IMG/VR virus record: IMGVR_UViG_3300028610_001314
Length of the DNA stretch: 64,000 nucleotides
Direction: 5' to 3' (one strand)
Source: a virus
In this document: positions 35,333-51,140 of the stretch, one piece after another
Layout: the number at the start of each line of letters is the position of its first letter
Numbering within the stretch: position 1 is the stretch's first letter
Notes under the pieces: generated by a model
Told to the model about the DNA's origin: nothing
The model's database searches: none
The model's input: the letters and a program-made list of their open reading frames with translations, nothing else
Made by a program: the position numbers and the translations under genes

Positions 35333-37444
35333 TTATGCCTCCGCTGATACCGCCGCAACATTCTCTTTACCGGGGCTTTGTGTCCCTGTGCTTGCAGCTT
35401 CTTTTTCTTTGTCACCATATTTAAGCTCTGCCATTTGTGCGGCTCTCTCCATTTCTGCTTGTTCCTGGGCCTGAATCTCGTAATGATGCATATCGGTATG
35501 ATTAATAAGCACTTTTTGATTAGCTACCGGCCAATCTTTAAAGTCTGGATTTAAAATAACTTTGGTGTGATTGTCATAATGTACCTGATGATTGTCGTAT
35601 TTGTAATAAGGATCATTGCTTAGAACTTCCACTTCTTGAGTTTCTTCGTTAAGCTTGGCGAAAAACAAACCTTCAAGAACCGGTTCAATCCCGGTCCCTT
35701 CATCGGCATCAACTTCAATCTCTTTATCGGTTGCCTGAGAAGCCATGCTGTTTTCACGCCCGGCCCTTTCCTCATGTACAGCATTTACAACCGGCAACCA
35801 GGACATTCCAAGGCGCTTCATTATTTCATACTGTAATCTGGGGTTCTCGGGTATGGCTCCGAAAAAGCCTTGTTCGATCAGTTTCATAATAAATTGGTTC
35901 TGGCCGGCATTTGTAGTCGCAACACCGCTGTCTTTTTCCATGCGTACATCGGTATTATCGTAAAGATCAGCACCTTTAAATGCTTTTATGAGAATTTCGT
36001 TCCCTTCCCCGGTCATTTTCAAAAGTCGTGTCTCTGTGATTAGTTCCTTTGCGAGAATCAATTGTTTCTTTTTAACCCGGTTCCAACTTCGATAAAATCT
36101 TTCTACGTCTGGGCTATGACTCATTTCAGCTGCTTCACGAAGTATGTCAACCATGATTCCGGATGCACCACTCGTAGGAGACTGACCCTTTAAAATATTC
36201 TTGGGATCTCCACCAGCATCTTGAATGTTTTCGATATTAAGTTTTCTTTCAGCCAATACCTGGTCGGGAAATGGGGTGCCTTTGACGACTTCGGGTTTTG
36301 ATCCATATGCCTGAGTAGCTTCATATTGTAGCACCAAAAGGGTTTGTCCTTGCTCTGACTGTCGTTTAAGAACAAGATCTGTTGGAGTTAATACATAGGG
36401 ACGGCCCAAGCTTGCACGATTAGAAGAAAAATCTTTGTCGATTTCGTTGATCATCTTCTGTGGACTGATCAGATCGTCTACGGAAGATGTTGCCCAGAAG
36501 CTTCCAGGGGTGTTATTATATTTAAAATCAGTAATGGTATAAAACCATTCGCCTTCATCATTTACCTTAATGGGCATTTTGGTCTCATTTTCTAAAACCT
36601 TACCGTCTGCTACAGCAACATACCTGCCTTTGGGATATTTTTTGGTAGGTCGATATTCAACTTCTTGGAAATATACTAAATCCTTGCTGTCCTTTTCAGT
36701 AAATGATCCTTGTTCTAAGCTGCGAGTTTTCCATGGACTGACATTCGCTACAAGGGTCATGAGCCGTTTTTCATATTCCAGGTCTATGCCGCCTACGCTG
36801 GCGGTACCCAATTTCACCTTGTAAGTATCTTCAACCCATTCTTTATCCTTTAAAGATCGAATTCCGACATAGCTTTTTTGTTTTAAGAGAACACCCAGGG
36901 AGGGAACCACTATGCTAAAGCCAATTATGTTTTCAATCGTAACCTCACCCTTGGATTGAACCTTTCCGTCTGCATCTGTAAAATATATTCCATTATCCAA
37001 ATTAGCATATGTTCTGATAAATGCATTCCCGGTCAAGATAAGCCACAGGGCTGCCCATTCCTTAATGTCTTCAATTTCATTGCAATTATCGTTATCAAGA
37101 GAACTCATGGCCATGCCTCCGAGTTTTGCAGCATCTTTATCTTTCTGGGTCTCGGAGTTAGGCCATATTCTGGCAGCATATTTTTTGTTGAGAATGAGGG
37201 CTTTCATTGAACGGACATGATCTCGGATCTTGTTGGCAACGGGGGTAAATTCGGCAGGATTAATAAAGGACGGTCCAAAACCACCCTGTTCTACAAACCA
37301 TGAAATCCATTGTTCCCCTAAATAAAACAGGATGTTTCTATACCATGTTAATTCCCGGATTGTTCTGGAATAGTCGGCATTATACCGGAATATGGTGGAA
37401 AAGTCTGTTAGGATTTCTGCATCATCTGGTTTAGATTTTGCCAT
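35333..37444 (-). CDS. Portal protein
   Basis: 703 aa; NKIRDHVR, D.AAKL, DDLISPQKMINE, SGIMVDIL motifs of podovirus-type portals; position. Confidence 0.9.
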   Translation of the reverse strand: MAKSKPDDAEILTDFSTIFRYNADYSRTIRELTWYRNILFYLGEQWISWFVEQGGFGPSFINPAEFTPVANKIRDHVRSMKALILNKKYAARIWPNSETQKDKDAAKLGGMAMSSLDNDNCNEIEDIKEWAALWLILTGNAFIRTYANLDNGIYFTDADGKVQSKGEVTIENIIGFSIVVPSLGVLLKQKSYVGIRSLKDKEWVEDTYKVKLGTASVGGIDLEYEKRLMTLVANVSPWKTRSLEQGSFTEKDSKDLVYFQEVEYRPTKKYPKGRYVAVADGKVLENETKMPIKVNDEGEWFYTITDFKYNNTPGSFWATSSVDDLISPQKMINEIDKDFSSNRASLGRPYVLTPTDLVLKRQSEQGQTLLVLQYEATQAYGSKPEVVKGTPFPDQVLAERKLNIENIQDAGGDPKNILKGQSPTSGASGIMVDILREAAEMSHSPDVERFYRSWNRVKKKQLILAKELITETRLLKMTGEGNEILIKAFKGADLYDNTDVRMEKDSGVATTNAGQNQFIMKLIEQGFFGAIPENPRLQYEIMKRLGMSWLPVVNAVHEERAGRENSMASQATDKEIEVDADEGTGIEPVLEGLFFAKLNEETQEVEVLSNDPYYKYDNHQVHYDNHTKVILNPDFKDWPVANQKVLINHTDMHHYEIQAQEQAEMERAAQMAELKYGDKEKEAASTGTQSPGKENVAAVSAEA

Positions 37445-37464
37445 TATGTCCTTGCCTTGGGCAC

Positions 37465-37529
37465 AAAAAAAGCGAGTAGCATGGACGGTGAACCGAATTT
37501 GTCACCGCATGGAGTCCATGCTACTCGCT
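37465..37529 (-). terminator. Strong intrinsic terminator in the portal leader
   Basis: 16-bp perfect stem AGCGAGTAGCATGGAC/GTCCATGCTACTCGCT with inner 5-bp stem, followed by T-tract, about 20 nt before portal ATG. Confidence 0.75.
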
Positions 37530-37726
37530 TAAATTTTGCATCCCCCGGTTAATTAGGCCGGGGTTAGCCCAAGTTTTTAGTTATGCATATATGTTGTCAA
37601 AATGCCTTTCGATATTGCATTTATTGCAAACTATTGTATTTCCAAACCGATAATTCTCTTCGGAAATATAAGTGTAATGAAAAATTCGACAATATAAAAT
37701 CCGCAACCATGATACATGCTTTATCA

Positions 37727-37990
37727 TTAAGTCACCGGAACTCTCACTTCATCTTTCTGAGCATCAATAAGCTTCTGAGCCTCGATCGCCAGATTGTTTT
37801 CAGCCTGAGTTTGCTTGAGCTTATCCTTAGCACTCGTTTTTTGCTCTTTATTATATAGGGCAAGTTCGCCCAAATTTCTTGAAATTAAAGCGGCTACTAG
37901 CTTGTCTTCGCGGTTTTTGGAGGCCCTTCTGTCATAAGCGTTCATCAATAACAGAAAGATTATGAATAGTATGAAAATGGAGGTTTCCAT
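37727..37990 (-). CDS. Small membrane-anchored protein
   Basis: N-terminal hydrophobic segment IFILFIIFLLLM. Confidence 0.6.
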   Translation of the reverse strand: METSIFILFIIFLLLMNAYDRRASKNREDKLVAALISRNLGELALYNKEQKTSAKDKLKQTQAENNLAIEAQKLIDAQKDEVRVPVT

Positions 37991-38027
37991 GATTAGTTTT
38001 TATCTGTACATGGAATTTAATGTTAAG

Positions 38028-38303
38028 TCAAGTGTTTTCCATGCGTCTAAATTCCCACGTTACACTTCCATCAGAATGTTTTTCAGCTATTATATTATAC
38101 TCTGGTATCAACCCATGCTCTTGGATTTCATCAAAATCATCAGAAATTGCTTGATATTTAATCGCATCATAATGGGGTTCGGGAGCTGCATGAACTATAA
38201 TACATCGTCCCATAATTTCTTTTGCAACCTCTGGATTGTCAACAATGAATATTCCTGATATTACAAACCATCCATACCGCATTGAACCGTATCTGAGTTT
38301 CAT
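38028..38303 (-). CDS. Hypothetical protein
   Basis: 91 aa, ATGA-coupled. Confidence 0.55.
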   Translation of the reverse strand: MKLRYGSMRYGWFVISGIFIVDNPEVAKEIMGRCIIVHAAPEPHYDAIKYQAISDDFDEIQEHGLIPEYNIIAEKHSDGSVTWEFRRMENT

Positions 38304-38665
38304 TTGTTTTCCCCCGCAAGAGCCTTGTCCAGAACGGCAAAAGCCTCATTCCAACCATCTGTATGTCCTCTGCGATATTCTTTCTTGATATTGGCATTTC
38401 TGTGGTGAGCTTTTTCAAAGCCTTCGGCGTAACCGTTCCGATAAGATTCAAATGAAATGCGCTCTACCATAGACAGTTTGCGAATTCGGCTAATTTTAAG
38501 ATAAACCCAGTAGTATGCGTTTCTAACCCACCTGACGACCTTGTTTAGAAGCAACGGATAACAAACACCAATGTCTCTGTCTGGTAAATAATATGAAACT
38601 CCGTATCCTCTTGGAATGATTCCACCCTGAGAAATTTCTATTCCTGAAATCAGTTTTTTAATCAT
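38300..38665 (-). CDS. Hypothetical protein
   Basis: 121 aa, operon context. Confidence 0.55.
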   Translation of the reverse strand: MIKKLISGIEISQGGIIPRGYGVSYYLPDRDIGVCYPLLLNKVVRWVRNAYYWVYLKISRIRKLSMVERISFESYRNGYAEGFEKAHHRNANIKKEYRRGHTDGWNEAFAVLDKALAGENK

Positions 38666-38668
38666 TTT

Positions 38669-38860
38669 TTACCTCATGTGGTGTGAAGGTGGATATTGGG
38701 TTAATTTGTAACAATAATTCTCTGGGCCAAAGTCTTGCATTTCAATTATAACCTCGTTAATATCATCGATTAGGATGGTTGCTGGAAGCTTTGGGCAATC
38801 ATACCCAACTCCTGTTATTTCGTCTGCATGAGTTTCTTCAACAGTTTGGCGTGTTTTCAT
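38669..38860 (-). CDS. Hypothetical protein
   Basis: 63 aa, operon context. Confidence 0.45.
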   Translation of the reverse strand: MKTRQTVEETHADEITGVGYDCPKLPATILIDDINEVIIEMQDFGPENYCYKLTQYPPSHHMR

Positions 38861-39116
38861 TTCGGGCCTCCTTCAACCTCCGTTTAATTTCACGCTCCCT
38901 GATTTCTTCGGGATATGGGATGTCTTGGTTGGTTCTGTGCTGTTTGCCAGCAAAAAGAGTTTTAATGTGAGCCTCTACCTCAGTCCTGACATCCTTCGCA
39001 AACCTTTCAATATTGCGAGTCAGATATTTTCCCCAAGGTGTCTTCGGTCCCGAAATCTTCACTGAACCATAGATTATTTTAGGATTAATTGGTTTCATAC
39101 TGTTTTGCCTTTCCAT
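38838..39116 (-). CDS. Hypothetical protein
   Basis: 92 aa, operon context; start uncertain. Confidence 0.45.
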   Translation of the reverse strand: MERQNSMKPINPKIIYGSVKISGPKTPWGKYLTRNIERFAKDVRTEVEAHIKTLFAGKQHRTNQDIPYPEEIREREIKRRLKEARNENTPNC

Positions 39117-39291
39117 TAATATATCCCTGCAAAGCCCTTCTGGGAATGTCTTCCATTAAGTGTTTTAACCATTTACTTGTTTTAAATATCCTGTCAAAGT
39201 TATCGTTGTAATCCTTGCTGTTTGACTTCTGGTTTTTGCAAAAAAGATTCTGTGTCATTTAGTCCTCCATCGGTATCCATTGCTCTCCTGT

Positions 39292-39579
39292 TTAATTCTG
39301 AGACATCTTAATAATATCAGCCGGTGAAGCACCAGGACGGACCATTAAAATTTTAGATTGATTCTTAGCCTCCTGCTCTCTAATAAAAGCAGAAACACGA
39401 AGTAACGCATTACATAAAAAAGTTATAGCCGTACCATGATCCATCGGGAAGTGCCGTACATCAACATCAAAATCATCATACATATCAATTTCCATCGTTC
39501 CTATAAGCTTATGCTCTCCCTGGGCCTGTTTTTCTTCACGCCTGTTTTCTTTTGATTTTTTCTCACTCATTTTGTTCAC
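39292..39579 (-). CDS. Hypothetical protein
   Basis: 95 aa, operon context. Confidence 0.55.
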   Translation of the reverse strand: MNKMSEKKSKENRREEKQAQGEHKLIGTMEIDMYDDFDVDVRHFPMDHGTAITFLCNALLRVSAFIREQEAKNQSKILMVRPGASPADIIKMSQN

Positions 39580-39812
39580 CCTTTGTCCACTACATTAAGT
39601 ATAAGTTTTGTTATATCTATATTTCCATTTTGTCCATTAAACGGGAGAGGGAAATCAGGATTCCTGGACTCAATTTCTACAAAATGTTCGACTTCCTTTC
39701 TGGAGTTGGCAAAAACCACAACCTCTCCTTTAATGTTAATATCAAAAGCTATCCCAAACATTTTATATCCTGGCTTCACCTCTACTATGTGTGATCCGTC
39801 AAATTTAATCAT
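39576..39812 (-). CDS. Hypothetical protein
   Basis: 78 aa, ATGA-coupled to terL. Confidence 0.5.
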   Translation of the reverse strand: MIKFDGSHIVEVKPGYKMFGIAFDINIKGEVVVFANSRKEVEHFVEIESRNPDFPLPFNGQNGNIDITKLILNVVDKG

Positions 39813-41263
39813 CCATACCTCCCAGTATAATTCTGCTCTGCCTGAATCTGAGCAACAATCTGCTCATACTCTTTTTGAGCTGCCATAGATGCAGGATCTA
39901 AATCAGACTTTTTCTTTTCATGAACCTCTGGTAACTTCATTGGTCGGGCCATAACTATGTGACATGATTCATCATATGTATGGTCAGCTTGTAAATCAGC
40001 CAAATCCTCGACATTATCATCATCCATACACAGCGATGGAATCGTGCTTATAAAATGCTTGCAGGTATCGTAAACCTGAAGCATCGGTCTTGTTTTACCG
40101 TCCTTTGGTATTGCCAATCGCTCCCTGAACTGCCTTATTTTAAGCTTTCTGTCTGGATCTCCTGGCCGAAGGGTAAGCCCAAGACCATTAAACACCTCTG
40201 CCGTACTCGGACCTTGACCACCGCCCTTATAGTCTGGTTTTTTTTGAAAGCAATCACGGCCCGCTAACCTGATAATCGGCTTGCCTGTAATTCCAAGCTT
40301 CAACTCTCTCTGAATAACACCCTTGGCAACATCTGAATCTTGTATTCTTAACCCATCATTCGCAACCTCGTCCCATCCATACCATTCTGCAAAACGATAT
40401 ATCCTGCCATCTCCATCTACCCACCACCAGCCAATAGAAAACGGTGCGCCAAAACCCCAATCGTATGTCATATACAAAGGAGCTGCATCTGGAATAGGCA
40501 GTGGTGTGATAATATGATGATCTTCAGATAAAAGAAACGCCTGCCCGATATAAACGTCCCAATTACCATCAAGCCATGCCTTCCGAAGCATAGGGTCACG
40601 AATTGACATCAATCTTCGAACATACTTAGGATCATTCTCGCATAGAATTTTATTATCTTTAAGGAATGATGGAATAAAAACCCGCGATTCCCCAATATCA
40701 TTATACATTACTGTCCCGGGTTTCATGTTGAATTCAGAACCAAGCTTAAAAGATAGCTTTACGTCATTGTGTCCCGGTCCTCCGGGATTACCAGTACCAA
40801 ACATCCTGCAGGGAACTCCATGGGGCGATCTGAGAGAACCTTGAAGCTTGTCAACCATCTTAATAAAGAAAGGAAATGTGGTACATTCATCAATGCTGAT
40901 TTCCGTATAATTCTCTCCAACATGGTCATTACACATCTCTAACAGTTTGATTGCAGACATGATAAATTTACCACCGTTTTTAAACCTAACGGTATTGACC
41001 TGCTGGTCCCCTCCAATTCTTTCGGCCGGGAGTCCACCCCTGATCAATTCATCAATCCTATTACGGATAGTGGAAAACTCCTTATATTTCCGGCGAACAA
41101 CTAAACCGTTCCATGCGTAATTGTATTTTTCAACTCCGCGGAGATGCCGGCCGATTAGACAATCAGTTTTTCCTCCACCGCGGGAACCTCCAAATAATGT
41201 AAAATCAGCCGGGCAGGTAGCCGCGTCTACTTGAGGGCCTGGTTGTGGGGTCCATATTGCCAT
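39809..41263 (-). CDS. terL: Terminase large subunit
   Basis: Walker A FGGSRGGGKT, Walker B ISIDE, GTGNPGGPGH, RNase H-like YDWGFG and DHTYDE. Confidence 0.95.
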   Translation of the reverse strand: MAIWTPQPGPQVDAATCPADFTLFGGSRGGGKTDCLIGRHLRGVEKYNYAWNGLVVRRKYKEFSTIRNRIDELIRGGLPAERIGGDQQVNTVRFKNGGKFIMSAIKLLEMCNDHVGENYTEISIDECTTFPFFIKMVDKLQGSLRSPHGVPCRMFGTGNPGGPGHNDVKLSFKLGSEFNMKPGTVMYNDIGESRVFIPSFLKDNKILCENDPKYVRRLMSIRDPMLRKAWLDGNWDVYIGQAFLLSEDHHIITPLPIPDAAPLYMTYDWGFGAPFSIGWWWVDGDGRIYRFAEWYGWDEVANDGLRIQDSDVAKGVIQRELKLGITGKPIIRLAGRDCFQKKPDYKGGGQGPSTAEVFNGLGLTLRPGDPDRKLKIRQFRERLAIPKDGKTRPMLQVYDTCKHFISTIPSLCMDDDNVEDLADLQADHTYDESCHIVMARPMKLPEVHEKKKSDLDPASMAAQKEYEQIVAQIQAEQNYTGRYG

Positions 41264-41625
41264 TATTTTACGTTTGTTCCTTCAACTCCACGCATTGTGC
41301 GATCCGCTGTCCGGCTCTGCAACCAGAGCAAGCCTTCTTGAATTTTTGTCAGCGCCAGTGCATTTTCCCTGCACTTGAACTCCCCAGCCTGAAAATGTTC
41401 GAGTCGGTCAATAACAATTGCAAGTAAATCTTCCTGGTGACATCCGTTCACACCGTTTTCTTTTATGGGGCCGTTCTGAAATCGAATATTCCCAAACCGT
41501 CCAGCGATTTCATCGGCAGAAGTAACGGCCGGTGAAAGATAATACTCATGACAAGCTCCACCTTCTCCCGGTTCATCAAATACTTGAATCTCTACATTTT
41601 CATTTGAATTTTTAACTGTCCTCAT
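41263..41625 (-). CDS. tad1: Tad1-family anti-defence sponge (Thoeris/CBASS signal sequestration)
   Basis: GEGGACHEY, IRFQNG, EDLLAIVIDRLEHFQAGEFKCRENALALTKIQEGLLWLQSRTADRTMRGVEGTNVK aligns along its length with Tad1 as recalled ([70 protein letters not shown]); start at MRTVK with AGGAG RBS. Confidence 0.85.
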   Translation of the reverse strand: MRTVKNSNENVEIQVFDEPGEGGACHEYYLSPAVTSADEIAGRFGNIRFQNGPIKENGVNGCHQEDLLAIVIDRLEHFQAGEFKCRENALALTKIQEGLLWLQSRTADRTMRGVEGTNVK

Positions 41626-41833
41626 TGTCTTTCTCCTTTTCCGGTTTATGGTTTTTATCCTTCTTACACTTCCCCTCACACCCCTTACAAGGTGCTTTCA
41701 TAAACTCCATTGATTCAAGAACTTCTATGTATTCCTTTTTAATCAGCAATAGGCACTTACCATATTCCGGGCATGGTGTTTGGAATAGACAGGCTTTGAA
41801 TATCGGGCAGTTTATTTCTTTGTCTTTTGGCAT
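41612..41833 (-). CDS. Small Cys-rich hypothetical protein
   Basis: CPIFKAC...CPEYGKC...CKGCEGKC; start uncertain. Confidence 0.45.
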   Translation of the reverse strand: MPKDKEINCPIFKACLFQTPCPEYGKCLLLIKKEYIEVLESMEFMKAPCKGCEGKCKKDKNHKPEKEKDNEDS

Positions 41834-41838
41834 TATAA

Positions 41839-42270
41839 TTAATAGCCTCTTTTCTGTCTCCAGTTCCAAAGTGTCATGTTTTTCATGCCTAATAATCGTG
41901 CGGCCTCTGTATTGTTCCCTCTGGACTTTTCAACCGCTTTATCGATCAAAGCATGTTTATAATTTTCAAGCGCCTCTTTTAAATTTATAGGCACTTCAAT
42001 ATTACACAAAGCTGAATTTTCATCTGTAATAATCTTAACCCGATCATCTTTGCTTTCTCTTGTCCTATCAATCATCTTGATAGCATCCACTATACGTTGC
42101 TGAATATTCAAATTAAGCACAGATATTGATTGGTTTATTATGATTGGAGCTTTGATGTCTTGCTCTATTTTTAAAGCATTAAGGGCATTGATTGAGGTTT
42201 TGGATGCTTGACCGCCTTGATTAGCGAGTATGTCTAAAAGTAGGTTTTTGGTGGTTTCGAGTTCTTTCAT
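41839..42270 (-). CDS. Protein with C-terminal Fis/NtrC-type HTH (HTH_8)
   Basis: LKEALENYKHALIDKAVEKSRGNNTEAARLLGMKNMTLW. Confidence 0.75.
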   Translation of the reverse strand: MKELETTKNLLLDILANQGGQASKTSINALNALKIEQDIKAPIIINQSISVLNLNIQQRIVDAIKMIDRTRESKDDRVKIITDENSALCNIEVPINLKEALENYKHALIDKAVEKSRGNNTEAARLLGMKNMTLWNWRQKRGY

Positions 42271-42503
42271 GCAACCCCGCAATAAGCATCAATTAAATCA
42301 AACAACTTCTCCATAGATTTTATATTCTTTCTCCAACCTAAAACCAACTTGCTCTTTTTGTCAAGCTTACGACCTAAATGCCATTCTCCACATTTAGGAC
42401 ATAAATAAGGCTTTCCCCAGACTGATCTGTGCTTATCTGTTCGTTTTAAAACTGAAGCTGCATGTTTTCTGCTTTTGTAGCCTATTTTACGGCAATTTCT
42501 CAT
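42267..42503 (-). CDS. Small Zn-finger protein
   Basis: CRKIGYKSRKHA...PYLCPKCGEWHLG pattern common in phages. Confidence 0.65.
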   Translation of the reverse strand: MRNCRKIGYKSRKHAASVLKRTDKHRSVWGKPYLCPKCGEWHLGRKLDKKSKLVLGWRKNIKSMEKLFDLIDAYCGVA

Positions 42504-42524
42504 TTAGACTCCTTGTTAAAAGTA

Positions 42525-42612
42525 GGGGAGCCACCCGCCGACAACGACCTGGCTAACCCTGGCGGGATTAGGAGGGTGCCGTGGCTGGAACACGGCGAAA
42601 CGGGCGCTCCCC
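42525..42612. ncRNA. Candidate three-way-junction structured RNA
   Basis: GGGGAGC/GCTCCCC closing stem, GCCGTG/CACGGC and CCCGCC/GGCGGG arms, fills the intergenic gap. Confidence 0.45.
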
Positions 42613-42616
42613 GTTA

Positions 42617-42763
42617 TTATATTCTCACAAATCCAAGAAAATTACGAGTTTCTAACCCTGCTGGAATCTTCTGGGCAGGAGGCCATGCCCCTTGGCATTT
42701 GTCGCAAACATTCCACCCATTACGAACCGGTCTCAATTTTTCTTTGCATCTTGGGCATTTCAT
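42617..42763 (-). CDS. Zinc-ribbon microprotein (48 aa, not in track)
   Basis: MKCPRCKEKL..VRNGWNVCDKCQGAW; ATGA-coupled. Confidence 0.55.
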   Translation of the reverse strand: MKCPRCKEKLRPVRNGWNVCDKCQGAWPPAQKIPAGLETRNFLGFVRI

Positions 42764-42939
42764 CCGAAATAACCCCGCGGATAGTTCTTAATCCCATTGA
42801 AAAAACCCTTAAAAGCTCTCTTGGCATGAGACCTTTTCTCATAAGCGCCTTCACCCCTGGCCAGAACCTTTTTTCTCAATAACCACTTCCACCGCCATCT
42901 TTCACTTTTTGGTAGCTGATAATATTCTACTGTGTGCAT
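42760..42939 (-). CDS. DUF1508/YegP-like small protein (59 aa, not in track)
   Basis: EYYQ...RWRWKW...VLARGEGAYEKRSHAKRAF; AGGAG RBS. Confidence 0.5.
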   Translation of the reverse strand: MHTVEYYQLPKSERWRWKWLLRKKVLARGEGAYEKRSHAKRAFKGFFNGIKNYPRGYFG

Positions 42940-43312
42940 GATTTACTCCTTTCATTATAAATATAGTAAATGTTTCCGGATCGTCTGCAAGACCGCATCC
43001 ATTTGGATGTGGATCATGTACAATTTCACCATCAAACCAAACTACAGAGTGTAGAAAATCTTTATTTCTTGGACTTGTACCGTTGGCTATAACGTAGCAA
43101 GAGTTTATTAATGAGGGATCTTCCATGGTAATGTCCAATAAGATAAAATCCTGTGATTTGCACCATTCTGCCACGTTTTTGTCAAAATCTCTCGGAGACT
43201 CTGTATGAAAATTCGGAATATTCTTCAAGGGAACCTCTAAAATAGAGGCAATACATGCACTAAAGCAATTTCCAGATTTAAACGTGATATCATCCTGCAC
43301 TATTTCTCTCAT
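42902..43312 (-). CDS. Conserved phage hypothetical protein (possible Cys/His protease-like fold)
   Basis: GNCFSACIASILE...HSVV...IVHDPHP. Confidence 0.6.
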   Translation of the reverse strand: MREIVQDDITFKSGNCFSACIASILEVPLKNIPNFHTESPRDFDKNVAEWCKSQDFILLDITMEDPSLINSCYVIANGTSPRNKDFLHSVVWFDGEIVHDPHPNGCGLADDPETFTIFIMKGVNHAHSRILSATKK

Positions 43313-43333
43313 AATTCCCCCAATTTTAAGCAT

Positions 43334-43362
43334 GGGGCGCTTTGGTTATGAGGGTGCGCCCC
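43334..43362 (-). other. Intergenic hairpin GGGGCGC-ACCCTCATAACCAAA-GCGCCCC
   Basis: 7-bp GC stem between vWA gene and next ORF. Confidence 0.55.
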
Positions 43363-43410
43363 GAACCCACTTCAAAAAGGAACACTGTAAAGGCTCCTTT
43401 TATCTCAAGT

Positions 43411-44028
43411 TTAATGTGGAAGTTGAGAATTTTCCCTTCGCCCAGCAACCCCAGAGCTGTAAGAAGCACAGGCTGCTGTAATTCCAGCGCCAGTAGCGGC
43501 AAAAGCTTGTGCATCGGCGGCCTTAATCCCGATTGAATGGGCTTCAGCAAAAGCATCCTGATTGGCCGCTAAAAACATGAAATCCCACGACTTTTTTTTG
43601 TCCAGCTTTTCAATCATTGTTTTGATTTGAGATTTTGAAAACTCCCGACTGGCATTTTCATGACCATCTGTGAGGATGGTGAAAATAACTTTTAATGGCC
43701 TCTTTCCTTTGTCCATATCCGCAATCCGCTTCTGAACATCATTCAAGGTCTTTCCAACCGCATCCAAAAGCGCCGTAGTTCCCCTCGGAACATAAGTCTT
43801 GTCCGTAAAGGGTTTAACCTTTTTCAGTGCCAGATTTTCGCAAATGACCTCATACTCATGGTCGAACTGCACAAGGGTCAAAGTTGCTTTCCCAGGAAGC
43901 TTCTGTTGCTCTTTGAGAAAGGTGTTGAAACCTCCGATAGCATCATCAACAATAGATCCCATAGATCCTGACCTGTCAATAACGCATACGATTTCGCAAT
44001 AACCAGTTTTTTTAGCCTTTTTAACCAT
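43411..44028 (-). CDS. von Willebrand factor A domain protein
   Basis: MIDAS DRSGSM, PRGTTALLDAVG, ILTDGHENAS. Confidence 0.9.
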   Translation of the reverse strand: MVKKAKKTGYCEIVCVIDRSGSMGSIVDDAIGGFNTFLKEQQKLPGKATLTLVQFDHEYEVICENLALKKVKPFTDKTYVPRGTTALLDAVGKTLNDVQKRIADMDKGKRPLKVIFTILTDGHENASREFSKSQIKTMIEKLDKKKSWDFMFLAANQDAFAEAHSIGIKAADAQAFAATGAGITAACASYSSGVAGRRENSQLPH

Positions 44029-44059
44029 TGGTTTATATCTCCTTTTATCTTAAGTTAAA

Positions 44060-44338
44060 TTATTCTTCCTCCCATAAACAATCAGTCAAAGGATCTAATC
44101 GACCATCATAATTCCTACACCACTTTGGACGATCATTATAAATCTTGCAACCAAACGCGCTCAATTGAGGACACGCTTCTTCTATTACAATCGCCAGCAT
44201 GCCAACAAGATTAACACAGGTCAAACCTCGGGCACGATAAAAATCCATCGCATGAGCGTCTATGAATCTATAATTGGTCATGATTGCAACTTTCTTACAG
44301 CATCTCATGCAGGATAGGCATAGATCAGATTTAGACAT
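44060..44338 (-). CDS. YkgJ-family cysteine-cluster protein
   Basis: CLSCMRCC...CPQL...GCKIYNDRP.WCR.Y; start at MSKSD with GAGGA RBS. Confidence 0.75.
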   Translation of the reverse strand: MSKSDLCLSCMRCCKKVAIMTNYRFIDAHAMDFYRARGLTCVNLVGMLAIVIEEACPQLSAFGCKIYNDRPKWCRNYDGRLDPLTDCLWEEE

Positions 44339-44540
44339 CACTTTCCTCATGCCGGGTGTTCCATGCTTTAATTGCTTTTTGCTTGGTTTTGCCAGATTGC
44401 ATTGCTCCACACTTTCCAACAACATGAAATCCTGTGCGACAATGTATTTCCCACCATTCCTCATTTTCCTTGGCACCATAAAATATAATTGGTTTTAGCG
44501 GCATTTCTCCACAAAACGGACATGGCAATAATTTCATCAT
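44331..44540 (-). CDS. Lar-like restriction-alleviation zinc-ribbon protein
   Basis: LLPCPFCG...IHC...CG......AIKAWNTR. Confidence 0.7.
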   Translation of the reverse strand: MMKLLPCPFCGEMPLKPIIFYGAKENEEWWEIHCRTGFHVVGKCGAMQSGKTKQKAIKAWNTRHEESDV

Positions 44541-44698
44541 TTCCCCCAATTCCACCCGGCATTCTTAGCCCAGAATAACCGGCCGGCAAAGAATTCTCGC
44601 TTGAAACACTTTAGATGTAAGCCTGTACTAGACTTTTTGTTCTTTTGGAATATTCTCTGCCAAAACCAGATGCGCCTTTTGCAGATAAAGCAGTTCAT
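44537..44698 (-). CDS. Cys/His microprotein (53 aa, not in track)
   Basis: MNCFICKRRIWFWQ...LHLKC; overlapping stop/start with neighbours. Confidence 0.5.
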   Translation of the reverse strand: MNCFICKRRIWFWQRIFQKNKKSSTGLHLKCFKREFFAGRLFWAKNAGWNWGK

Positions 44699-44854
44699 TT
44701 ATTTTCTCACCAACCTATTCCAAGCCAAAATTACCCCGACAAATTCAGGATGCTTCGCTACCAACAAACAACATCGGATAGTCCAAATCAAAGGCATTTC
44801 ATCCTCTTTTCTTGGCTCTGGTTTATTACCGCAATCGGAACAGGGTTCTATCAT
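44699..44854 (-). CDS. Second Lar-like microprotein (51 aa, not in track)
   Basis: PCSDCGNKP...IRCC...ILAWN. Confidence 0.5.
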   Translation of the reverse strand: MIEPCSDCGNKPEPRKEDEMPLIWTIRCCLLVAKHPEFVGVILAWNRLVRK

Positions 44855-44903
44855 TTTGGAAACTCCCTTGCTTTATCAATTCAAAAGGGGTTAGGGTTGG
44901 TGG

Positions 44904-45065
44904 TTATCTATCTTCCCAGTCTTGTGCGCTAACTACACTTAATTCATCCCTGTTCGTGCCACAATGAATACAACTTTTCCTGCCGACTTCATTTACAGCT
45001 CGGAAACATGGTTCCACTTTTAATTCTCGACAGCATGTATGGCATAAATAAACTATATCACCCAT
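44904..45065 (-). CDS. Zn-finger microprotein (53 aa, not in track)
   Basis: LCHTC...SCIHCG; coupled to upstream stop. Confidence 0.5.
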   Translation of the reverse strand: MGDIVYLCHTCCRELKVEPCFRAVNEVGRKSCIHCGTNRDELSVVSAQDWEDR

Positions 45066-45472
45066 CACACACACCCCTTTCTTATCAATTCAATTCGCTC
45101 GTTAAGCGTTCTGGTAATCTCGCCCCCTATTTTGCGGAGTTGTTGCTCGGCGTGTTGTAGATTAAACTTCATTTCAATAAGCGGGACGCGGTTTTGTTGC
45201 CTTATAATTGCGGCCCTAAAGCCTTGGTTCGGTTGCTTGATATAAGGATTAAAGTTCTTGTGGGTATCTTGGCACTCAAAATGCCACGCCACAGCATCCC
45301 GCAACTCGGCAAGCTCTCTATCGGTACGTTCAAGCGCATCCCGCAAAACCAAGCTTTCCTGCATTAATATTTCTTTGTCTTTCTCGGCTTTTTTAAGTAC
45401 CAACCACCTGTCCTCAAGCTCGGTCTTCAGGCGTATGATTTCGGCCTGTAGGTTCATTGATTCTGGTGTCAT
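45065..45472 (-). CDS. Coiled-coil hypothetical protein
   Basis: 135 aa, ATGA-coupled. Confidence 0.6.
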   Translation of the reverse strand: MTPESMNLQAEIIRLKTELEDRWLVLKKAEKDKEILMQESLVLRDALERTDRELAELRDAVAWHFECQDTHKNFNPYIKQPNQGFRAAIIRQQNRVPLIEMKFNLQHAEQQLRKIGGEITRTLNERIELIRKGCV

Positions 45473-45831
45473 TTTTTCACCTTCTTGCCTTCCTGTTGAT
45501 CCTTGGGAGCCAAAACACTATTCGCCAAAGGATTGACCCACGGCTTTTCTTTTGAAGGTTTTTCTGATTCGATCTTTTTGGCAGGAGAGGATTTAATCTT
45601 TTCCTCGGTTTTCTTCATTTCGTGCTGATCAGGTTGAGGTTCGGGTTTCTGTCTGAACTCTGCTTCTAACTCGTGAGAAACAACGACTCTTTTTCCCTGG
45701 CTCATATTTGCCTTATGTAAACTGACCAGATAATTACTTACAGATCTGTCAACAAGCTTTGCCTCTGCTCTAATAGATTCCCAAATCTCAGAAGATGGTA
45801 AATAAATAAGTTTTCGGATTCCCTGGGCCAT
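45469..45831 (-). CDS. Putative ribbon-helix-helix DNA-binding protein
   Basis: LIYLPSSEIWESIRAEAKLVDRSVSNYL; first gene after a sigma70-like promoter. Confidence 0.5.
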   Translation of the reverse strand: MAQGIRKLIYLPSSEIWESIRAEAKLVDRSVSNYLVSLHKANMSQGKRVVVSHELEAEFRQKPEPQPDQHEMKKTEEKIKSSPAKKIESEKPSKEKPWVNPLANSVLAPKDQQEGKKVKK

Positions 45832-45869
45832 TATTCCTCCCGAATAGAATATATACTTTGTTAATACTT

Positions 45870-45897
45870 AGTATATACCCCATTCAGAAGATGTCAA
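45870..45897 (-). promoter_or_regulatory. Sigma70-like promoter
   Basis: TTGACA-N16-TATACT upstream of 45831. Confidence 0.6.
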
Positions 45898-46089
45898 GAA
45901 CTATTTGTCCTTAACTAAATCCCGGGCCATTAAATTAGCCTTATGCAAATCAGTCAAATAACGACCTGCAGAAACACGCTTCCCGGTTAAAGACGACAAC
46001 CGAAACGACTCCTTCATAACAGAATCCCAATCATCAGGATCAACGTAAATGTTTACCCTTTTTCCTTTTAACATGGTGTTTTCCCTTGG

Positions 46090-46578
46090 TTAAAATAGTT
46101 CTAGTTGCTTGGATTTATTTTCAAGCCGGGTTCTCATATCCCAAAATCTAAACATATATCCCCGATACATTTTTTCTTTTTGGTGCTTATTTATTTTCTT
46201 GCCGTTAAGCCGCGGAGGTCTTTTCTTTTCTAAACACTTAAAAATGCCATTCCTTTTTTTAAAAATCTCCATATGCCCTGCATATTCAGGAACTTCGCTG
46301 GTCTTAATTAACCCCGAAGGTGTTGCAAACCAAAAATAACGCTGGAAGCATCTCTGATCTTTCTTGAAAAAATGGTGCTTTAGTTTATTAAAATCTGCCT
46401 TGAAGTCTGCCCTGCTTACTTTAATTTCGTATTCAGAAATATAACCGGCTTTTGTAACAGATATTAAATCGGCTTCTGACCATGCCCCTCCGGACAAATA
46501 TATGTTTGGTATAATAAACTCATGGCCCTTGGCTAAAAGATGGTTATAAAGAGCGTTTTGGATTGTAAATTCATTCAT
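46090..46578 (-). CDS. PD-(D/E)XK nuclease, MmcB-like
   Basis: EADLISVT...EYEIKVSRADFKADF.K. Confidence 0.75.
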   Translation of the reverse strand: MNEFTIQNALYNHLLAKGHEFIIPNIYLSGGAWSEADLISVTKAGYISEYEIKVSRADFKADFNKLKHHFFKKDQRCFQRYFWFATPSGLIKTSEVPEYAGHMEIFKKRNGIFKCLEKKRPPRLNGKKINKHQKEKMYRGYMFRFWDMRTRLENKSKQLELF

Positions 46579-47996
46579 TTAAACCTATTCCAGCCTTTCT
46601 GCTTGGTTGACTTCTCAATACGCGGTATTGCATATTGCAAATCAAGATCAATACCGACATATTTTATGCCCAACTCTTCACACACCACGCCTAAAGTCCC
46701 AGATCCAAAGAACATATCTAAAATCAATGCATCTTTCGGAGGCGCAATAAGTTCGACCAAATATTTAATTAGTGATAGTGGTTTAACTGTCGGATGTTTA
46801 TTGTCTTTTCCTCGTTCTGATCGTGAGGCTTTGGCACAATAGAAGAAGCGGGAAGCTCCGCCAGAATCGCAAATTTCTGTTGGGCAATCTGTTCTTTCGT
46901 CCCCCATTTGATCTAAAAACTGGCTGTTTCCATGCTTGCGGATATATTTCCCTTTTGATGGCTGAATTCCCCCGCTTTGTTCATCCAATATCCCAACAGG
47001 ACAATCAGGGTGACAGTTCCATTTTTCTATTTCCTCTAACCCGTTATTATCACCATGTTTATTAAATTCAGTTCTTTTATATTCCCCATAGCAAGCCGTA
47101 TTTTCGTCTCCGGTATGGCTTGGTTCATTTCCTGAAACTGACCCGCTTTTATTCTTGATCTCTTTCGTTCCAACACATTCACATTCTGGGTGGTGAGTTA
47201 ATATTATATTGGCAGGGAACCGGCCTTGTGATTTCATATGCCAATCTGTTTTATGGGTATAGCTCGACTTGTTTTTACGCTTATACCCCTCGGCAACATT
47301 ATCATAAACAGCCCCGCCGTGTTCACGCTTTGCCCCGATGTCACGCGTTGCTATTCGGCTTTTGTCAATATTCAACCCCGCCACACCATGGTTCAGGGCG
47401 TTCTCGGCAAAGGTGCCGTCAACGGACTTCATGGCTACTATTATAGGTTCCCATGCTGGCTTTAGGGCTGTGCCGTATCCGTTCCATTCTTGGGCTTCTG
47501 GGGTTGCTGGAATGGTCAGTTCTATTTCTCCGCTTTCACTTTTGTTCGCAAAATTATTGCCTTGCATTCCGATGTTTGTTATTCTCGTTCCAACAACCTC
47601 ACGATCGGTCCCTGCAGCTTTGTCAATCGCTTTTGAGATATCCAAAGATTTCGGGAAGCCAGAGCCATAGAGCCATTGCATACAGTCTCTAATTTCCCAT
47701 CCGGCATCCTCGATAGCGCACATCAGCCTGTGGTGAGTACGAGTCCCGCCAAAAGCCAAAAGGAAAGCACCTGGTTTTGACACCCTCAAAACCTCTTTCC
47801 ATGTATCAATCTGAAATGCAACACCAGAAGCATCCCACTTTCTGCCCATAAAACCAAGTTCATAGGGCGGATCCGTGACAATACCAGTGAAATAATTATC
47901 CGGAAATGTCGGCATAATATCATTACAATTTCCTTGATAAAGAGTCCCGAGTAGTGAATTATAATCTGGATCCATTATTACCTCACCCTCCAACAA
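46575..47996 (-). CDS. N4/N6 DNA methyltransferase (beta class) with large central insert
   Basis: IVTDPPYELGFMG, GTALKPAWEPI, HPTVKPL, LDMFFGSGT. Confidence 0.9.
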   Translation of the reverse strand: MLEGEVIMDPDYNSLLGTLYQGNCNDIMPTFPDNYFTGIVTDPPYELGFMGRKWDASGVAFQIDTWKEVLRVSKPGAFLLAFGGTRTHHRLMCAIEDAGWEIRDCMQWLYGSGFPKSLDISKAIDKAAGTDREVVGTRITNIGMQGNNFANKSESGEIELTIPATPEAQEWNGYGTALKPAWEPIIVAMKSVDGTFAENALNHGVAGLNIDKSRIATRDIGAKREHGGAVYDNVAEGYKRKNKSSYTHKTDWHMKSQGRFPANIILTHHPECECVGTKEIKNKSGSVSGNEPSHTGDENTACYGEYKRTEFNKHGDNNGLEEIEKWNCHPDCPVGILDEQSGGIQPSKGKYIRKHGNSQFLDQMGDERTDCPTEICDSGGASRFFYCAKASRSERGKDNKHPTVKPLSLIKYLVELIAPPKDALILDMFFGSGTLGVVCEELGIKYVGIDLDLQYAIPRIEKSTKQKGWNRFK

Positions 47997-48199
47997 TACT
48001 TCCTCTCACACGGCAATCCGTTACAGCAGCGACCATCTTTAAAACACGGACATTTGGGATTAGGAAATTTCATGGGGTTTTTTTGCCATGTTTCCAGCTA
48101 ATTAAAAAAATGCTGAATCTGTGAATTTTCTACACCATACAAAGTATATACTAAATAACCTAAATATACGTACACACGATCTTAAATAAACTAAATAAC

Positions 48200-48228
48200 A
48201 CCATACTATACGTATATGCTTGTGTCAA
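48200..48228 (-). promoter_or_regulatory. Sigma70-like promoter
   Basis: TTGACA-N17-TATGGT; overlapped by short repeats (CTAAATAAC x2, ACACCATAC x2). Confidence 0.55.
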
Positions 48229-48269
48229 GTGAATAATGTGTGTAAGGTATTTAAGGGCGATTTGAAAAT

Positions 48270-48788
48270 TTAAACCCGAGAAATACCACCACCAGACCAC
48301 AAAACGTCTATAAACGTCCTATCCCCGCGATGCCAGCGGTTATGGTCGCCCTGGTTACGAAATACCATCAAGTTATTAGGATCATTATTATTACAGTTTC
48401 CATCTTCGTGATGAACAACCTCACCCTCAACCAGATAATAACCGCAATCACGAACAGACTTACGAGCCATCCGCATGCCGTAAACAGACCGAATATACTC
48501 TGGATTCTCAAGATGCTTCCAGTAATGCTCCTTACAACAATAATGATTCCGGGTACGCAAAAACACAGAGCGAGTCTTTAAAAAATTCTTCCCACAGGAC
48601 GGTAACGCGCATTTCGCGGCCTTACGGGTATCAGAGGTCTGGATACCGCTTCGATTCAAAAACCGCAAGACAGAACGACCGGTAACAATACCCCCCGTTA
48701 AAACAGCTATCTTGTCCCCTGAATAGCCCTCGTCCCATAATTCAATTATCTTGTCACCTATAACGGAATCCTTAATCTTATCAACCAT
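48270..48788 (-). CDS. HNH endonuclease with N-terminal HTH and Zn motif
   Basis: EVVHHEDGNCNNNDPNNL......H...H; CALPSCG...YCC. Confidence 0.8.
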   Translation of the reverse strand: MVDKIKDSVIGDKIIELWDEGYSGDKIAVLTGGIVTGRSVLRFLNRSGIQTSDTRKAAKCALPSCGKNFLKTRSVFLRTRNHYCCKEHYWKHLENPEYIRSVYGMRMARKSVRDCGYYLVEGEVVHHEDGNCNNNDPNNLMVFRNQGDHNRWHRGDRTFIDVLWSGGGISRV

Positions 48789-49104
48789 ATTACCCTCCTT
48801 TTTAAAGAAGAATAACACACCAATGACGCAAAGTCAACGTCTAATATCGTAAAAGACCTTTTTAGGGGAACTTGAAATCTACTACTATTGGTTTTTGGTA
48901 TAGGTATACGTATATCCGAAGGGGGGTTTTGCCGGGGTGGGGGGGTCTGTTTTGGTAATGTCTTATAATGTATGGCCGATAACATGTATTATGGTGGCTT
49001 TATAATGAAGCGTAATCAATATAACTATCTAACATCACACAGTTATTAAAACCGTCATAAGTTTACACTTAATTACGGTCCATAGATGCACTGTTCATAG
49101 GGCT

Positions 49105-49763
49105 CTATGATCCAGTCTTATCCTCGATCTGTCCAGCCGGCAGCACTGGCGTGACGTCAATAGCCTTCCTGGACTCTTCAGCCTCAAGCCTCTGTTGCTC
49201 CCAATCTGCAATTGTTTCGGGTTCCTTTGGAAAATCAGTTAGTTTGGTCTCAATAGGACCACCACCAGGGCCGGAGTGTTCGCGCTTCTCCGGAGCATTC
49301 ATTCCACGGACCTTTAAAGCCATATCAAGAGTCTTGCGCTGCGTCTCAATGGCCTCCACTTCAACCTCTTTGACCAATATATCAACCACTTGACCCTTTT
49401 CGTCTTTAACTGGAGCATGAAAGAACTTGGTTTGCTTTGCATCGATCAGGGATCTCAGCTTGAGTTTCAGGAAATTCTCAGACAATCCGGTCTCATCGAG
49501 CCATAATTCTATTTTGTCCGATAGGATTGTGAAGTTTTGACATCCGATATTTCTAAAGGAATCATTTGACTTTGCATTATATTTTGCAGCGATAGCGGAA
49601 GCGGTTGAATTTAAGAAGGTGACACTACTTGACTCATTAAGATAGTGCTTGAGCCACACATGGCGCTTTGTAGCTTTGTTTATCCTTCGTTTTTTTTTTT
49701 GACTGGGAGATTTTTAGATTTATCCGGGTTTGATTTGGTTACGATGGCAGGTGAGTTTTGCAT
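49105..49763 (-). CDS. terS: Terminase small subunit, frameshifted at an A11 tract (49690-49700)
   Basis: LNSTASAIAAKY...FRNIGCQN, RKTLDMALK, KREHSGPGGGPI motifs in 49105..49659; ATG at 49763 with AGGA RBS joins it after a -1 shift. Confidence 0.7.
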
Positions 49764-50139
49764 TTTGTTTAGTTTCCTGATTTAGTGGCGCTAGATTGCT
49801 CTGTGTTAGTTCTTTGTTTGAAGGGATAATAGTAAGTATGGGTGAGATGGAACTCTTTCTTATAATGGTGTTTGATATGTTTAGCGATAGTTTGAAAGAA
49901 TCTTTTTAAATGGATTGATTTTTGTATTTTAGGTCTGGCGTCCATGATGATTAAATGATTAGCATAATGGTTTAGTGAATGTCAATGATATTTTAAGGGT
50001 TGTGTAAGGTTGTATAAGGTTTGAAAGGTTGAATAAAAATGTTGAAAATAAATATATTTTTAATTGGGTGATTTAATGGTGTTTTATTGGATGGTTGAAA
50101 TTAATTGCAATAAAAGTGTATTTATTTTGTATTTTATGC

Positions 50140-50168
50140 TTGACACGGTATATTTAATGATTTATATT
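50140..50168 (+). promoter_or_regulatory. Early sigma70-like promoter
   Basis: TTGACA-N17-TATATT with AT-rich upstream region. Confidence 0.7.
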
Positions 50169-50225
50169 CAATCATACTGTAAAAAGTACATTAGATATTA
50201 ACCCTTAATAAACGGAGATCATAAC

Positions 50226-50408
50226 ATGGCAATTTATTCAAGATTTGGAATAGAGGTTAAAATAGTCAACTACTGCCAGAAAAGCAGTATGGTAGAAGTG
50301 CAAGACGTTGAAGATGGTGAAAAATATAAGGAGATCCACATAGCTGAACTAAAGGCTGATGGTGGAATTCATGAAATTCAAGACGCCATCCATGCAGTTG
50401 TATATTAA
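50226..50408 (+). CDS. Early small protein
   Basis: 60 aa, GGAG RBS. Confidence 0.7.
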   Translation: MAIYSRFGIEVKIVNYCQKSSMVEVQDVEDGEKYKEIHIAELKADGGIHEIQDAIHAVVY

Positions 50409-50484
50409 TCTTTTAGTTTTACCCTTGATTACGATTGAGGGTAAACCGGATTGATTAACCTATAATATAAAGGAGATGTGAAAT

Positions 50485-50667
50485 ATGGAATTAAGGCACA
50501 ATTTAGGCAATAGGTTTTGGCACAAGCTTGACAGGTTGCCAGAAACAGAAGGGGATTTAAAACATCTTGTTAAATTATTTCCTCAAGCTGTTGTCACCAG
50601 GAAATCAAACGATAAAGCCATATTGTTAAGTGAGGCAAAACTTAAAAATCTTCACTGGTATAAATAA
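50485..50667 (+). CDS. Early small protein
   Basis: 60 aa, AAGGAG RBS. Confidence 0.7.
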   Translation: MELRHNLGNRFWHKLDRLPETEGDLKHLVKLFPQAVVTRKSNDKAILLSEAKLKNLHWYK

Positions 50668-50681
50668 AAGGAGCTAAAGCC

Positions 50682-50888
50682 ATGAAAGCTAACTGGACAA
50701 ATCGCAAAAAGGTCTTGGATAAGCGGGAGTTAAACCATTTGCACAAGGATGCTGGTTGCCGGACAAAGGCACAATTCCAAAACAATATTAACCAGCACCA
50801 CAAATGGAGAAAAGAAAATCCCGGCAATCCTGATCCTTGCTTAGAATGCTTGTGGATTGCATCTAAGCTCAATATGTTGCCAGCCTAA
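50682..50888 (+). CDS. Early small protein
   Basis: 68 aa, AAGGAG RBS, H..GC and C..C residues. Confidence 0.7.
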   Translation: MKANWTNRKKVLDKRELNHLHKDAGCRTKAQFQNNINQHHKWRKENPGNPDPCLECLWIASKLNMLPA

Positions 50889-50960
50889 CTCCAAACCATA
50901 GCCGCTTAAGCTACCATCAAGCGGTTATGCTGGGGAGTTAAATAATAGGATTGAAACATT

Positions 50961-51140
50961 ATGAACATTAAAATCAAACCGTCTGAATTGCCAATTATGC
51001 CCGATTATTTATTGCCGGAAAACTTTAACCGTAAACAGATAAACGCCGGGATTAAAAATGCAGGGCAGGCGGTCAAGAAGAAAGCTAAAAACAAAAAGAA
51101 GCGCAAAGCAACACGAAGACAAAAACGCAAAAATAGATAG
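50961..51140 (+). CDS. Early highly basic microprotein (59 aa, not in track)
   Basis: MNIKIKPSELP...KKKAKNKKKRKATRRQKRKNR; AGGA RBS. Confidence 0.6.
   Translation: MNIKIKPSELPIMPDYLLPENFNRKQINAGIKNAGQAVKKKAKNKKKRKATRRQKRKNR

Follow-up and report, generated by a model that had tools for sequence, protein, structure and literature searches.

A Tad1-family homologue, predicted to sequester immune signals, encoded next to the large terminase gene of an IMG/VR virus

The window analysed in this work is the whole 64,000-nt stretch of viral DNA from IMG/VR record IMGVR_UViG_3300028610_001314, and the genes described below lie on its minus strand. A gene of the Tad1 family of sponges, recognised by homology, fold and pocket residues, occupies positions 41263 to 41625 and encodes a protein of 120 aa (P0001). 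It is a small stand-alone protein among phage genes, in a contig that also carries terL, portal and terS genes. The start codon is the ATG at 41625, which has a Shine-Dalgarno sequence, AAGGAG, 7 nt on its 5' side (41633 to 41638, by sequence reading), and the same start methionine is found in 39 out of 39 close homologues. A longer form starting at GTG 41679 was considered and rejected, since the homologues begin at the one common methionine encoded at 41625. The gene ends with TAA (41265-41263), and base 41263 is shared with the ATG of terL (41263-41261), so that stop and start form a TAATG with 1 base in common (41261 to 41265), exactly as the first-pass annotation had stated. The large terminase subunit gene terL itself extends from 39809 to 41263 and encodes 484 aa (P0002). 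Its identity is given by the PHROGs matches phrog_979 (5.9e-24) and phrog_2 (1.3e-22) and by a Walker A motif read in the sequence (GGSRGGGKT); a Pfam search of P0002 gave no match. Relatives in IMG/VR have terL proteins that are 73-75% identical to P0002.

A homologue of terS, the small terminase gene, lies 7.8 kb upstream of terL, at positions 49105 to 49659. The candidate has no direct Pfam or PHROG match and does not resemble the GP3_package terS of locus L128; it is identified by homology to the loci L084, L086 and L089. An ORF of L084, which itself matches the terS family phrog_51 (4.6e-26), is 37% identical to the candidate over 173 aa (E 1.6e-17), and over its C-terminal 36-40 aa the candidate also matches the terS adjoining terL in L086 and L089. 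Between terS and terL there is a variable accessory-gene island of about 20 ORFs (41264 to 49104). The loci L086-L089, where terL is 57-73% identical, have no island: their terS directly adjoins terL or overlaps it. The two genes are separated by about 1.7 kb of DNA containing Tad1 in L081, L082 and L084. As the spacing of terS and terL is thus 0, about 1.7 or 7.8 kb across the lineage, Tad1 is carried as cargo in a variable island that divides terS from terL.

The content of the island bears on a suggestion of the first-pass annotation, namely that the small cysteine-rich ORF next to Tad1 and other ORFs around it are candidates for further anti-defence genes. This suggestion is partly borne out, by two members of the island. 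One is a Lar-like restriction-alleviation protein of 74 aa (44331 to 44555), with 33.3 bits to PF14354 (cut-off 28.6) and a phrog_599 match at 1.3e-10; the other is an N6/N4 DNA methyltransferase of 473 aa (46575 to 47996; Pfam N6_N4_Mtase 7e-27, phrog_67 5.3e-54). It does not extend to the cysteine-rich neighbour or to the small ORFs downstream of terL, which have no recognisable family. The cysteine-rich ORF (41612 to 41869) probably starts at ATG 41833, which gives a protein of 73 aa and a 14-nt overlap with the start of Tad1. Read from there (41612-41833) it is not assigned to a family by Pfam, PHROGs, PADLOC or NCBIfam, its Atlas matches are below 0.8 and uninformative, its own model has a pLDDT of 0.41, and no homologue is present at the loci of the relatives. 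The next ORF (41839 to 42282, probable start ATG 42270) encodes a protein with a C-terminal Fis-type HTH (Pfam HTH_8, 28.3 bits, cut-off 22), and an HNH endonuclease is encoded beside terS (48270 to 48818; phrog_7545, 7.9e-11), a 43% identical homologue of which comes after terS in L128. The island further encodes an MmcB-like nuclease, a CxxCxxCC protein, a VWA protein and several zinc-ribbon or cysteine-rich peptides without a family. Another 18 small ORFs, located inside the island or near it, and ten more from the islands of relatives were searched as well; Lar and zinc ribbons came up, together with weak hints of HTH or radical-SAM, and nothing else.

When the sequence was compared at the nucleotide level with known phages, only the Tad1 gene was matched (about 70% to Bacillus phages BSP36/38); as far as such a search can tell, this phage has no close cultured relative. 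A tRNA search found none. A terL scan of genome contigs returned only three contigs, all from metagenome-assembled genomes and with conflicting labels (Gemmatimonadaceae, Methanospirillum, Eubacteriales).

P0001 is a genuine Tad1-family homologue. In a phmmer search against solved structures (PDB) it matches CmTad1 (8KBB) with an E value of 2.9e-25 over nearly its full length and CbTad1 (7UAV) with 1.5e-20 over residues 13-120, and Tad1 of phage SBSphiJ7, the founder of the family, is 54% identical over the C-terminal 90 residues (pairwise E 4e-35). These values bear out the full-length Tad1-like ORF that had been claimed from the sequence. The first-pass annotation had also proposed an HMM search against Tad1 as a check: phrog_2428 is matched at 2e-34, while the Pfam model PF24729 (Acb2_Tad1_hairpin), which spans only the 58-residue hairpin, reaches 22 bits (E 1.9e-4, residues 68-102) against a gathering cut-off of 27. 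The precomputed annotation of the protein collection assigns PF24729.3 to P0001 and to all the close homologues listed. Searches of PADLOC and NCBIfam gave no match for P0001, and chains of Acb2 (anti-CBASS 2) are absent from its PDB sequence search (E <= 10). About 1,600 non-redundant homologues of the Tad1 family have already been catalogued (PMC12393519), and P0001 is an ordinary new environmental member of this well-studied, known family.

The fold is in agreement with this assignment. The monomer was modelled by AlphaFold2 on 40 relatives, with a moderate mean pLDDT of 67 that drops below 60 in the N-terminal sheet; the model has strands at residues 11-15, 25-32 and 45-49, followed by long helices at 64-80 and 86-112. 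At E <= 0.001 Foldseek returns 20 matches for this model, every one a Tad1 chain (best E value 1.7e-8, TM 0.62-0.67) and none an Acb2 chain. The homodimer model reached an ipSAE of 0.82 against 0.00 for the best control, a value that indicates likeness and may be recall, as solved Tad1 complexes exist; the runs agreed in at least 93% of contacts, with a partner pLDDT of at least 85. Of the proteins with a structure solved as a pair, 20 of 30 reach the mark used here, compared with 1 of 23 among those with a single-chain structure. The residues of the hexamer interface of CmTad1 (R88, K96, T95, Q98, E99, M102, W103 and K106) correspond to R86, K94, T93, Q96, E97, L100, W101 and S104 of P0001: six out of eight are identical, one is a conservative change (L100 for M102), and S104 differs from K106. 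By homology, P0001 would be a head-to-tail dimer assembled into a hexamer, i.e. a trimer of dimers.

The ligand pockets were mapped on P0001 through the phmmer alignments, with the roles of the residues taken from Li et al. (bioRxiv 10.1101/2023.11.15.567273), who defined two kinds of Tad1 pocket by structures and mutants. The pocket for gcADPR and cyclic dinucleotides is at the dimer interface and is formed in CbTad1 by F82, N92, R109 and R113; the pocket for trinucleotides is at the three-fold interface, with the pair R90/T97 of CbTad1 equivalent to R88/T95 of CmTad1 and flanked in the latter by C87, A91 and M92 (bioRxiv 10.1101/2023.11.15.567273). The equivalents in P0001 are F78, N88, R105 and R109 for the first pocket, and R86 and T93 with the flanking residues C85, A89 and L90 for the second. 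Among the 40 relatives of alignment A1 the six pocket residues show no variation at five positions, and T93, the sixth, is conserved in at least 90% of them. All four Tad1 proteins tested by Li et al. bound cA3/cAAG as well as gcADPR and differed in their dinucleotide spectra (bioRxiv 10.1101/2023.11.15.567273), and all ten diverse homologues tested by Leavitt et al. blocked Thoeris (bioRxiv 10.1101/2022.05.03.490397). In a wider survey from the Sorek laboratory, around a quarter of the sponge homologues, drawn from three families, inhibited 0 of 7 systems (PMC12393519). As the pocket residues are kept and every tested homologue binds, we predict with fair confidence that P0001 sequesters gcADPR and trinucleotides. 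Its cyclic-dinucleotide preference is not predictable: the guanine contacts of CbTad1 are not conserved, and since L119, one of these contacts, is replaced by E115 in P0001, as it is in CmTad1, the 2'3'/3'2'-cGAMP preference of CbTad1 need not carry over.

It is useful to compare P0001 with the characterised sponges one at a time. Like Tad1 of SBSphiJ7 it is a small stand-alone phage protein, with an RGVEGT tail and a motif KCRENAL (residues 84-90) that corresponds to NCRENAM of the founder. Unlike P0001, the founder has 142 aa with a longer N-terminus, and its gene, in a Herelleviridae genome of 153 kb, has hypothetical genes and no terminase gene as neighbours. CmTad1, from a Clostridioides mangenotii prophage (8KBB/8KBC/8KBD), is both the best solved match and the top Foldseek match. 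It shares the KCRENA motif, the R/T pair of the trinucleotide pocket and the glutamate in the IEGT tail; on the other hand the identity is about 40% (in the Foldseek alignments), the two diverge in the loops around the dinucleotide pocket and in the N-terminal strands, and the interface change from K106 to S104 also separates the two proteins. CbTad1, from a Clostridium botulinum prophage (7UAV/7UAW/8KBE-8KBH), is matched at all six of its pocket residues (F82, N92, R109, R113, R90 and T97) and has the GGA-HEY strand motif in common with P0001; it differs at L119 and in its motif, SSRENAC in place of KCRENAL. Acb2 resembles P0001 in the C-terminal helical hairpin (Pfam Acb2_Tad1_hairpin) and, at the level of the family, in forming a hexamer that binds trinucleotides at the three-fold interface (Li et al., bioRxiv 10.1101/2023.11.15.567273), while P0001 is set apart from it by the Tad1 N-terminal beta-sheet and by the Tad1 residues of the gcADPR pocket.

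Two readings of P0001 other than a sponge of the usual kind need to be discussed. It might have the Tad1 fold and a shifted ligand range, having lost dinucleotide binding or gained another signal through C25, C62 and E115. All sequences of the 40-member environmental subfamily have C62 and at least 90% have C25, and both cysteines are absent from the Tad1 proteins of SBSphiJ7, CmTad1 and CbTad1. C62, moreover, is part of the beta4-alpha1 loop, the segment that in CbTad1 closes over gcADPR (bioRxiv 10.1101/2023.11.15.567273); the divergent dinucleotide spectra of the four tested proteins and the loss of the CbTad1 guanine contacts, with E115 at the position of L119, point in the same direction. 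However, every residue with a mutational role in gcADPR/dinucleotide or trinucleotide binding is kept in P0001, and gcADPR and trinucleotide binding was retained in every homologue tested, so we hold a shifted range to be distinctly improbable. The argument that the first-pass annotation had offered for it, namely that RENAC has become CRENAL and the cysteine has moved, turned out to be mistaken: CRENA is present in SBSphiJ7 Tad1 (NCRENAM), in CmTad1 (KCRENAM) and in 40 out of 40 sequences of alignment A1, which indicates that CRENAM/CRENAL is the usual form of the motif and that RENAC is peculiar to CbTad1. The idea that CRENAL itself may shift the ligand range is accordingly left without support. 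In CmTad1 the cysteine of this motif, Cys87, is one of the residues lining the cA3 pocket (Li et al., bioRxiv 10.1101/2023.11.15.567273). In the other reading, P0001 assists packaging or stands in for the small terminase. Position speaks for it, as in L086-L089 terS is the gene adjoining or overlapping terL, and so does the label 'structural protein' that Tad1 homologues bear in some Bacillus phage records. Against this, the window has a separate terS homologue (49105-49659), P0001 has no terS family match and aligns with Tad1 over nearly its full length, and Tad1 occurs together with terS in L084 and L128; the Tad1 homology effectively refutes this reading, and we give it hardly any credence.

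A further question is whether Tad1 and terL are deliberately coupled, so that production of the sponge keeps pace with that of packaging and late proteins, the triggers of signalling defences. The first-pass annotation had suggested that coupling to terL times the sponge, and there are observations in favour. The TAATG overlap is real, and the AGGA nearest to terL is 14 nt from its ATG, a poor spacing compared with the 7 nt of Tad1's own Shine-Dalgarno sequence, which makes some dependence of terL on upstream translation plausible in this phage. In unrelated IMG/VR contigs, Tad1 homologues directly precede packaging genes: one overlaps a terminase-like ORF by an ATGA (L021), others are directly 5' of terL (L046, L003) or of the portal gene (L075-L077, L007). 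In a set of 68 large ORFs lying no more than 4 kb from Tad1 homologues, moreover, terL families are the commonest label, with phrog_2 in 10; the portal family phrog_156 occurs in 8. However, the overlap is not kept by the relatives. Among the closest ones, L126 separates an 81% identical Tad1 from terL by 218 nt, and L081-L084 place one to four ORFs, over a distance of 340-1168 nt, between the two genes; in L128 several small genes come after Tad1, and the TAATG is repeated only in contigs with an identical Tad1 protein (L129). Nor is the overlap unusual for its surroundings, as 14 out of 60 junctions in the minus-strand gene array have 1- or 4-nt stop/start overlaps, six of which are TAATG. 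Across 80 IMG/VR loci the downstream neighbours of Tad1 homologues vary widely, and no enrichment of Tad1 near terL could be demonstrated, the counts being close to the chance expectation (we estimate that about 15-20% of 8-kb windows in genomes of 40-60 kb contain terL); in SBSphiJ7 and MY192 Tad1 is not close to a terminase gene. A literature search for the placement of Tad1 with late genes or terminase found no paper on such an arrangement. The overlap therefore looks like ordinary gene packing and not like a conserved device, the claim that it times the sponge is weak, and we consider deliberate coupling unlikely.

The explanation that we prefer is that P0001 is very probably a Tad1-family immune-signal sponge that is carried as cargo of the variable island between terS and terL, and whose ligand binding is predicted. 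By analogy with the solved family members, the pocket at the dimer interface would sequester the Thoeris signals 1''-3'/1''-2' gcADPR, and the pocket at the trimer interface would sequester the CBASS cyclic trinucleotides cA3 and cAAG. Sequestration of these signals is predicted to keep the Thoeris and CBASS effectors of the host inactive. The island also accommodates the methyltransferase and Lar-like anti-restriction genes. Tad1 has the same orientation as the late gene array, i.e. as the packaging and structural genes, and since there is no terminator-like site just upstream on the coding strand, it is probably co-transcribed with terL; a promoter and terminator scan of positions 37000-51000 was not clearly above background (47 versus 35.5±5.7 and 13 versus 12.2±3.5 in shuffled sequence). 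As terL lacks a well-spaced Shine-Dalgarno sequence, its translation may rely on ribosomes that finish Tad1.

The aspect that we find mildly new is the position of Tad1 in an island that separates terS from terL. One may speculate further that the terS-terL junction is a dedicated landing site for counter-defence genes, that the sponge is made together with the packaging proteins, and that C62 and C25 might alter the lid loop and the ligand range, but we regard this extended proposal as doubtful. As to the cargo, the junction holds Tad1, the Lar-like gene and the methyltransferase in the present phage, and Tad1 plus unknown genes in the relatives. If the proposal were true, the unnamed small genes of the island would supply new anti-defence proteins, and late production of sponges would be a distinct strategy. 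The useful part of the finding is comparative: terS and terL, which are normally neighbours, lie 0, about 1.7 or 7.8 kb apart in this lineage, with Tad1 repeatedly present in the insert, and for this reason the approximately 20 unnamed ORFs of the island are reasonable candidates for a counter-defence screen. The finding also raises the question of whether sponges encoded in late operons may be timed to the signals that packaging proteins trigger.

The Tad1-family sponge protein P0001 (120 aa, window 41263-41625, minus strand) belongs to a subfamily with cysteines of its own. C62 and C85 occur in every one of 40 environmental relatives, and C25 is conserved in at least 90% of them, whereas the characterised proteins SBSphiJ7 Tad1, CmTad1 and CbTad1 all lack C25 and C62. 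C62 is located in the loop preceding helix 1, and in CbTad1 the loop before helix 1 closes over the Thoeris signal gcADPR (Li et al., bioRxiv 10.1101/2023.11.15.567273). Matches to the C-terminal part of the protein suggest that there are longer proteins bearing a C-terminal Tad1-like hairpin: the solved protein gp184 (PDB 8Y6V chain I, 230 aa) aligns with the last 72 residues of P0001 at an E value of 1.9e-9, and phrog_23843 and phrog_22140, which are profiles of 200-230 aa, match the same part.

Between the large terminase gene terL (39809-41263, minus strand) and terS, the small terminase homologue (49105-49659, minus strand), lies a 7.8-kb island with about 20 accessory ORFs (41264-49104, minus strand). 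In related phages the insert between these two genes measures 0 or about 1.7 kb. The island includes a gene for a 74-aa Lar-like restriction-alleviation protein (44331-44555, minus strand; Pfam PF14354 33.3 bits, cut-off 28.6; phrog_599 1.3e-10), and in the related locus L128 a Lar-like gene is also found downstream of Tad1.

On the other side of terL, between terL and the portal gene, there are 8 or 9 small ORFs of unknown function (37445-39808, minus strand). Several have homologues at the same position in the related loci L081, L082, L086 and L126, which indicates that some of the region has been conserved and does not consist of random cargo. The terL of L126, an ENA contig closely related to the window, is 836 aa long (L126:6013-8523), as it carries an in-frame 352-aa insert to whose two flanks residues 1-32 and 33-484 of the window terL align. 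The insertion point is immediately past the Walker A lysine (GGSRGGGK|T), and the insert gives a faint LAGLIDADG match, which makes it a probable intein lodged in the P-loop of the terminase.

An HNH endonuclease gene (48270-48818, minus strand) directly follows terS. The order terS-HNH is common to the window and L128, whose terS is of a different family (GP3_package), and this recurring arrangement may reflect HNH-assisted packaging.
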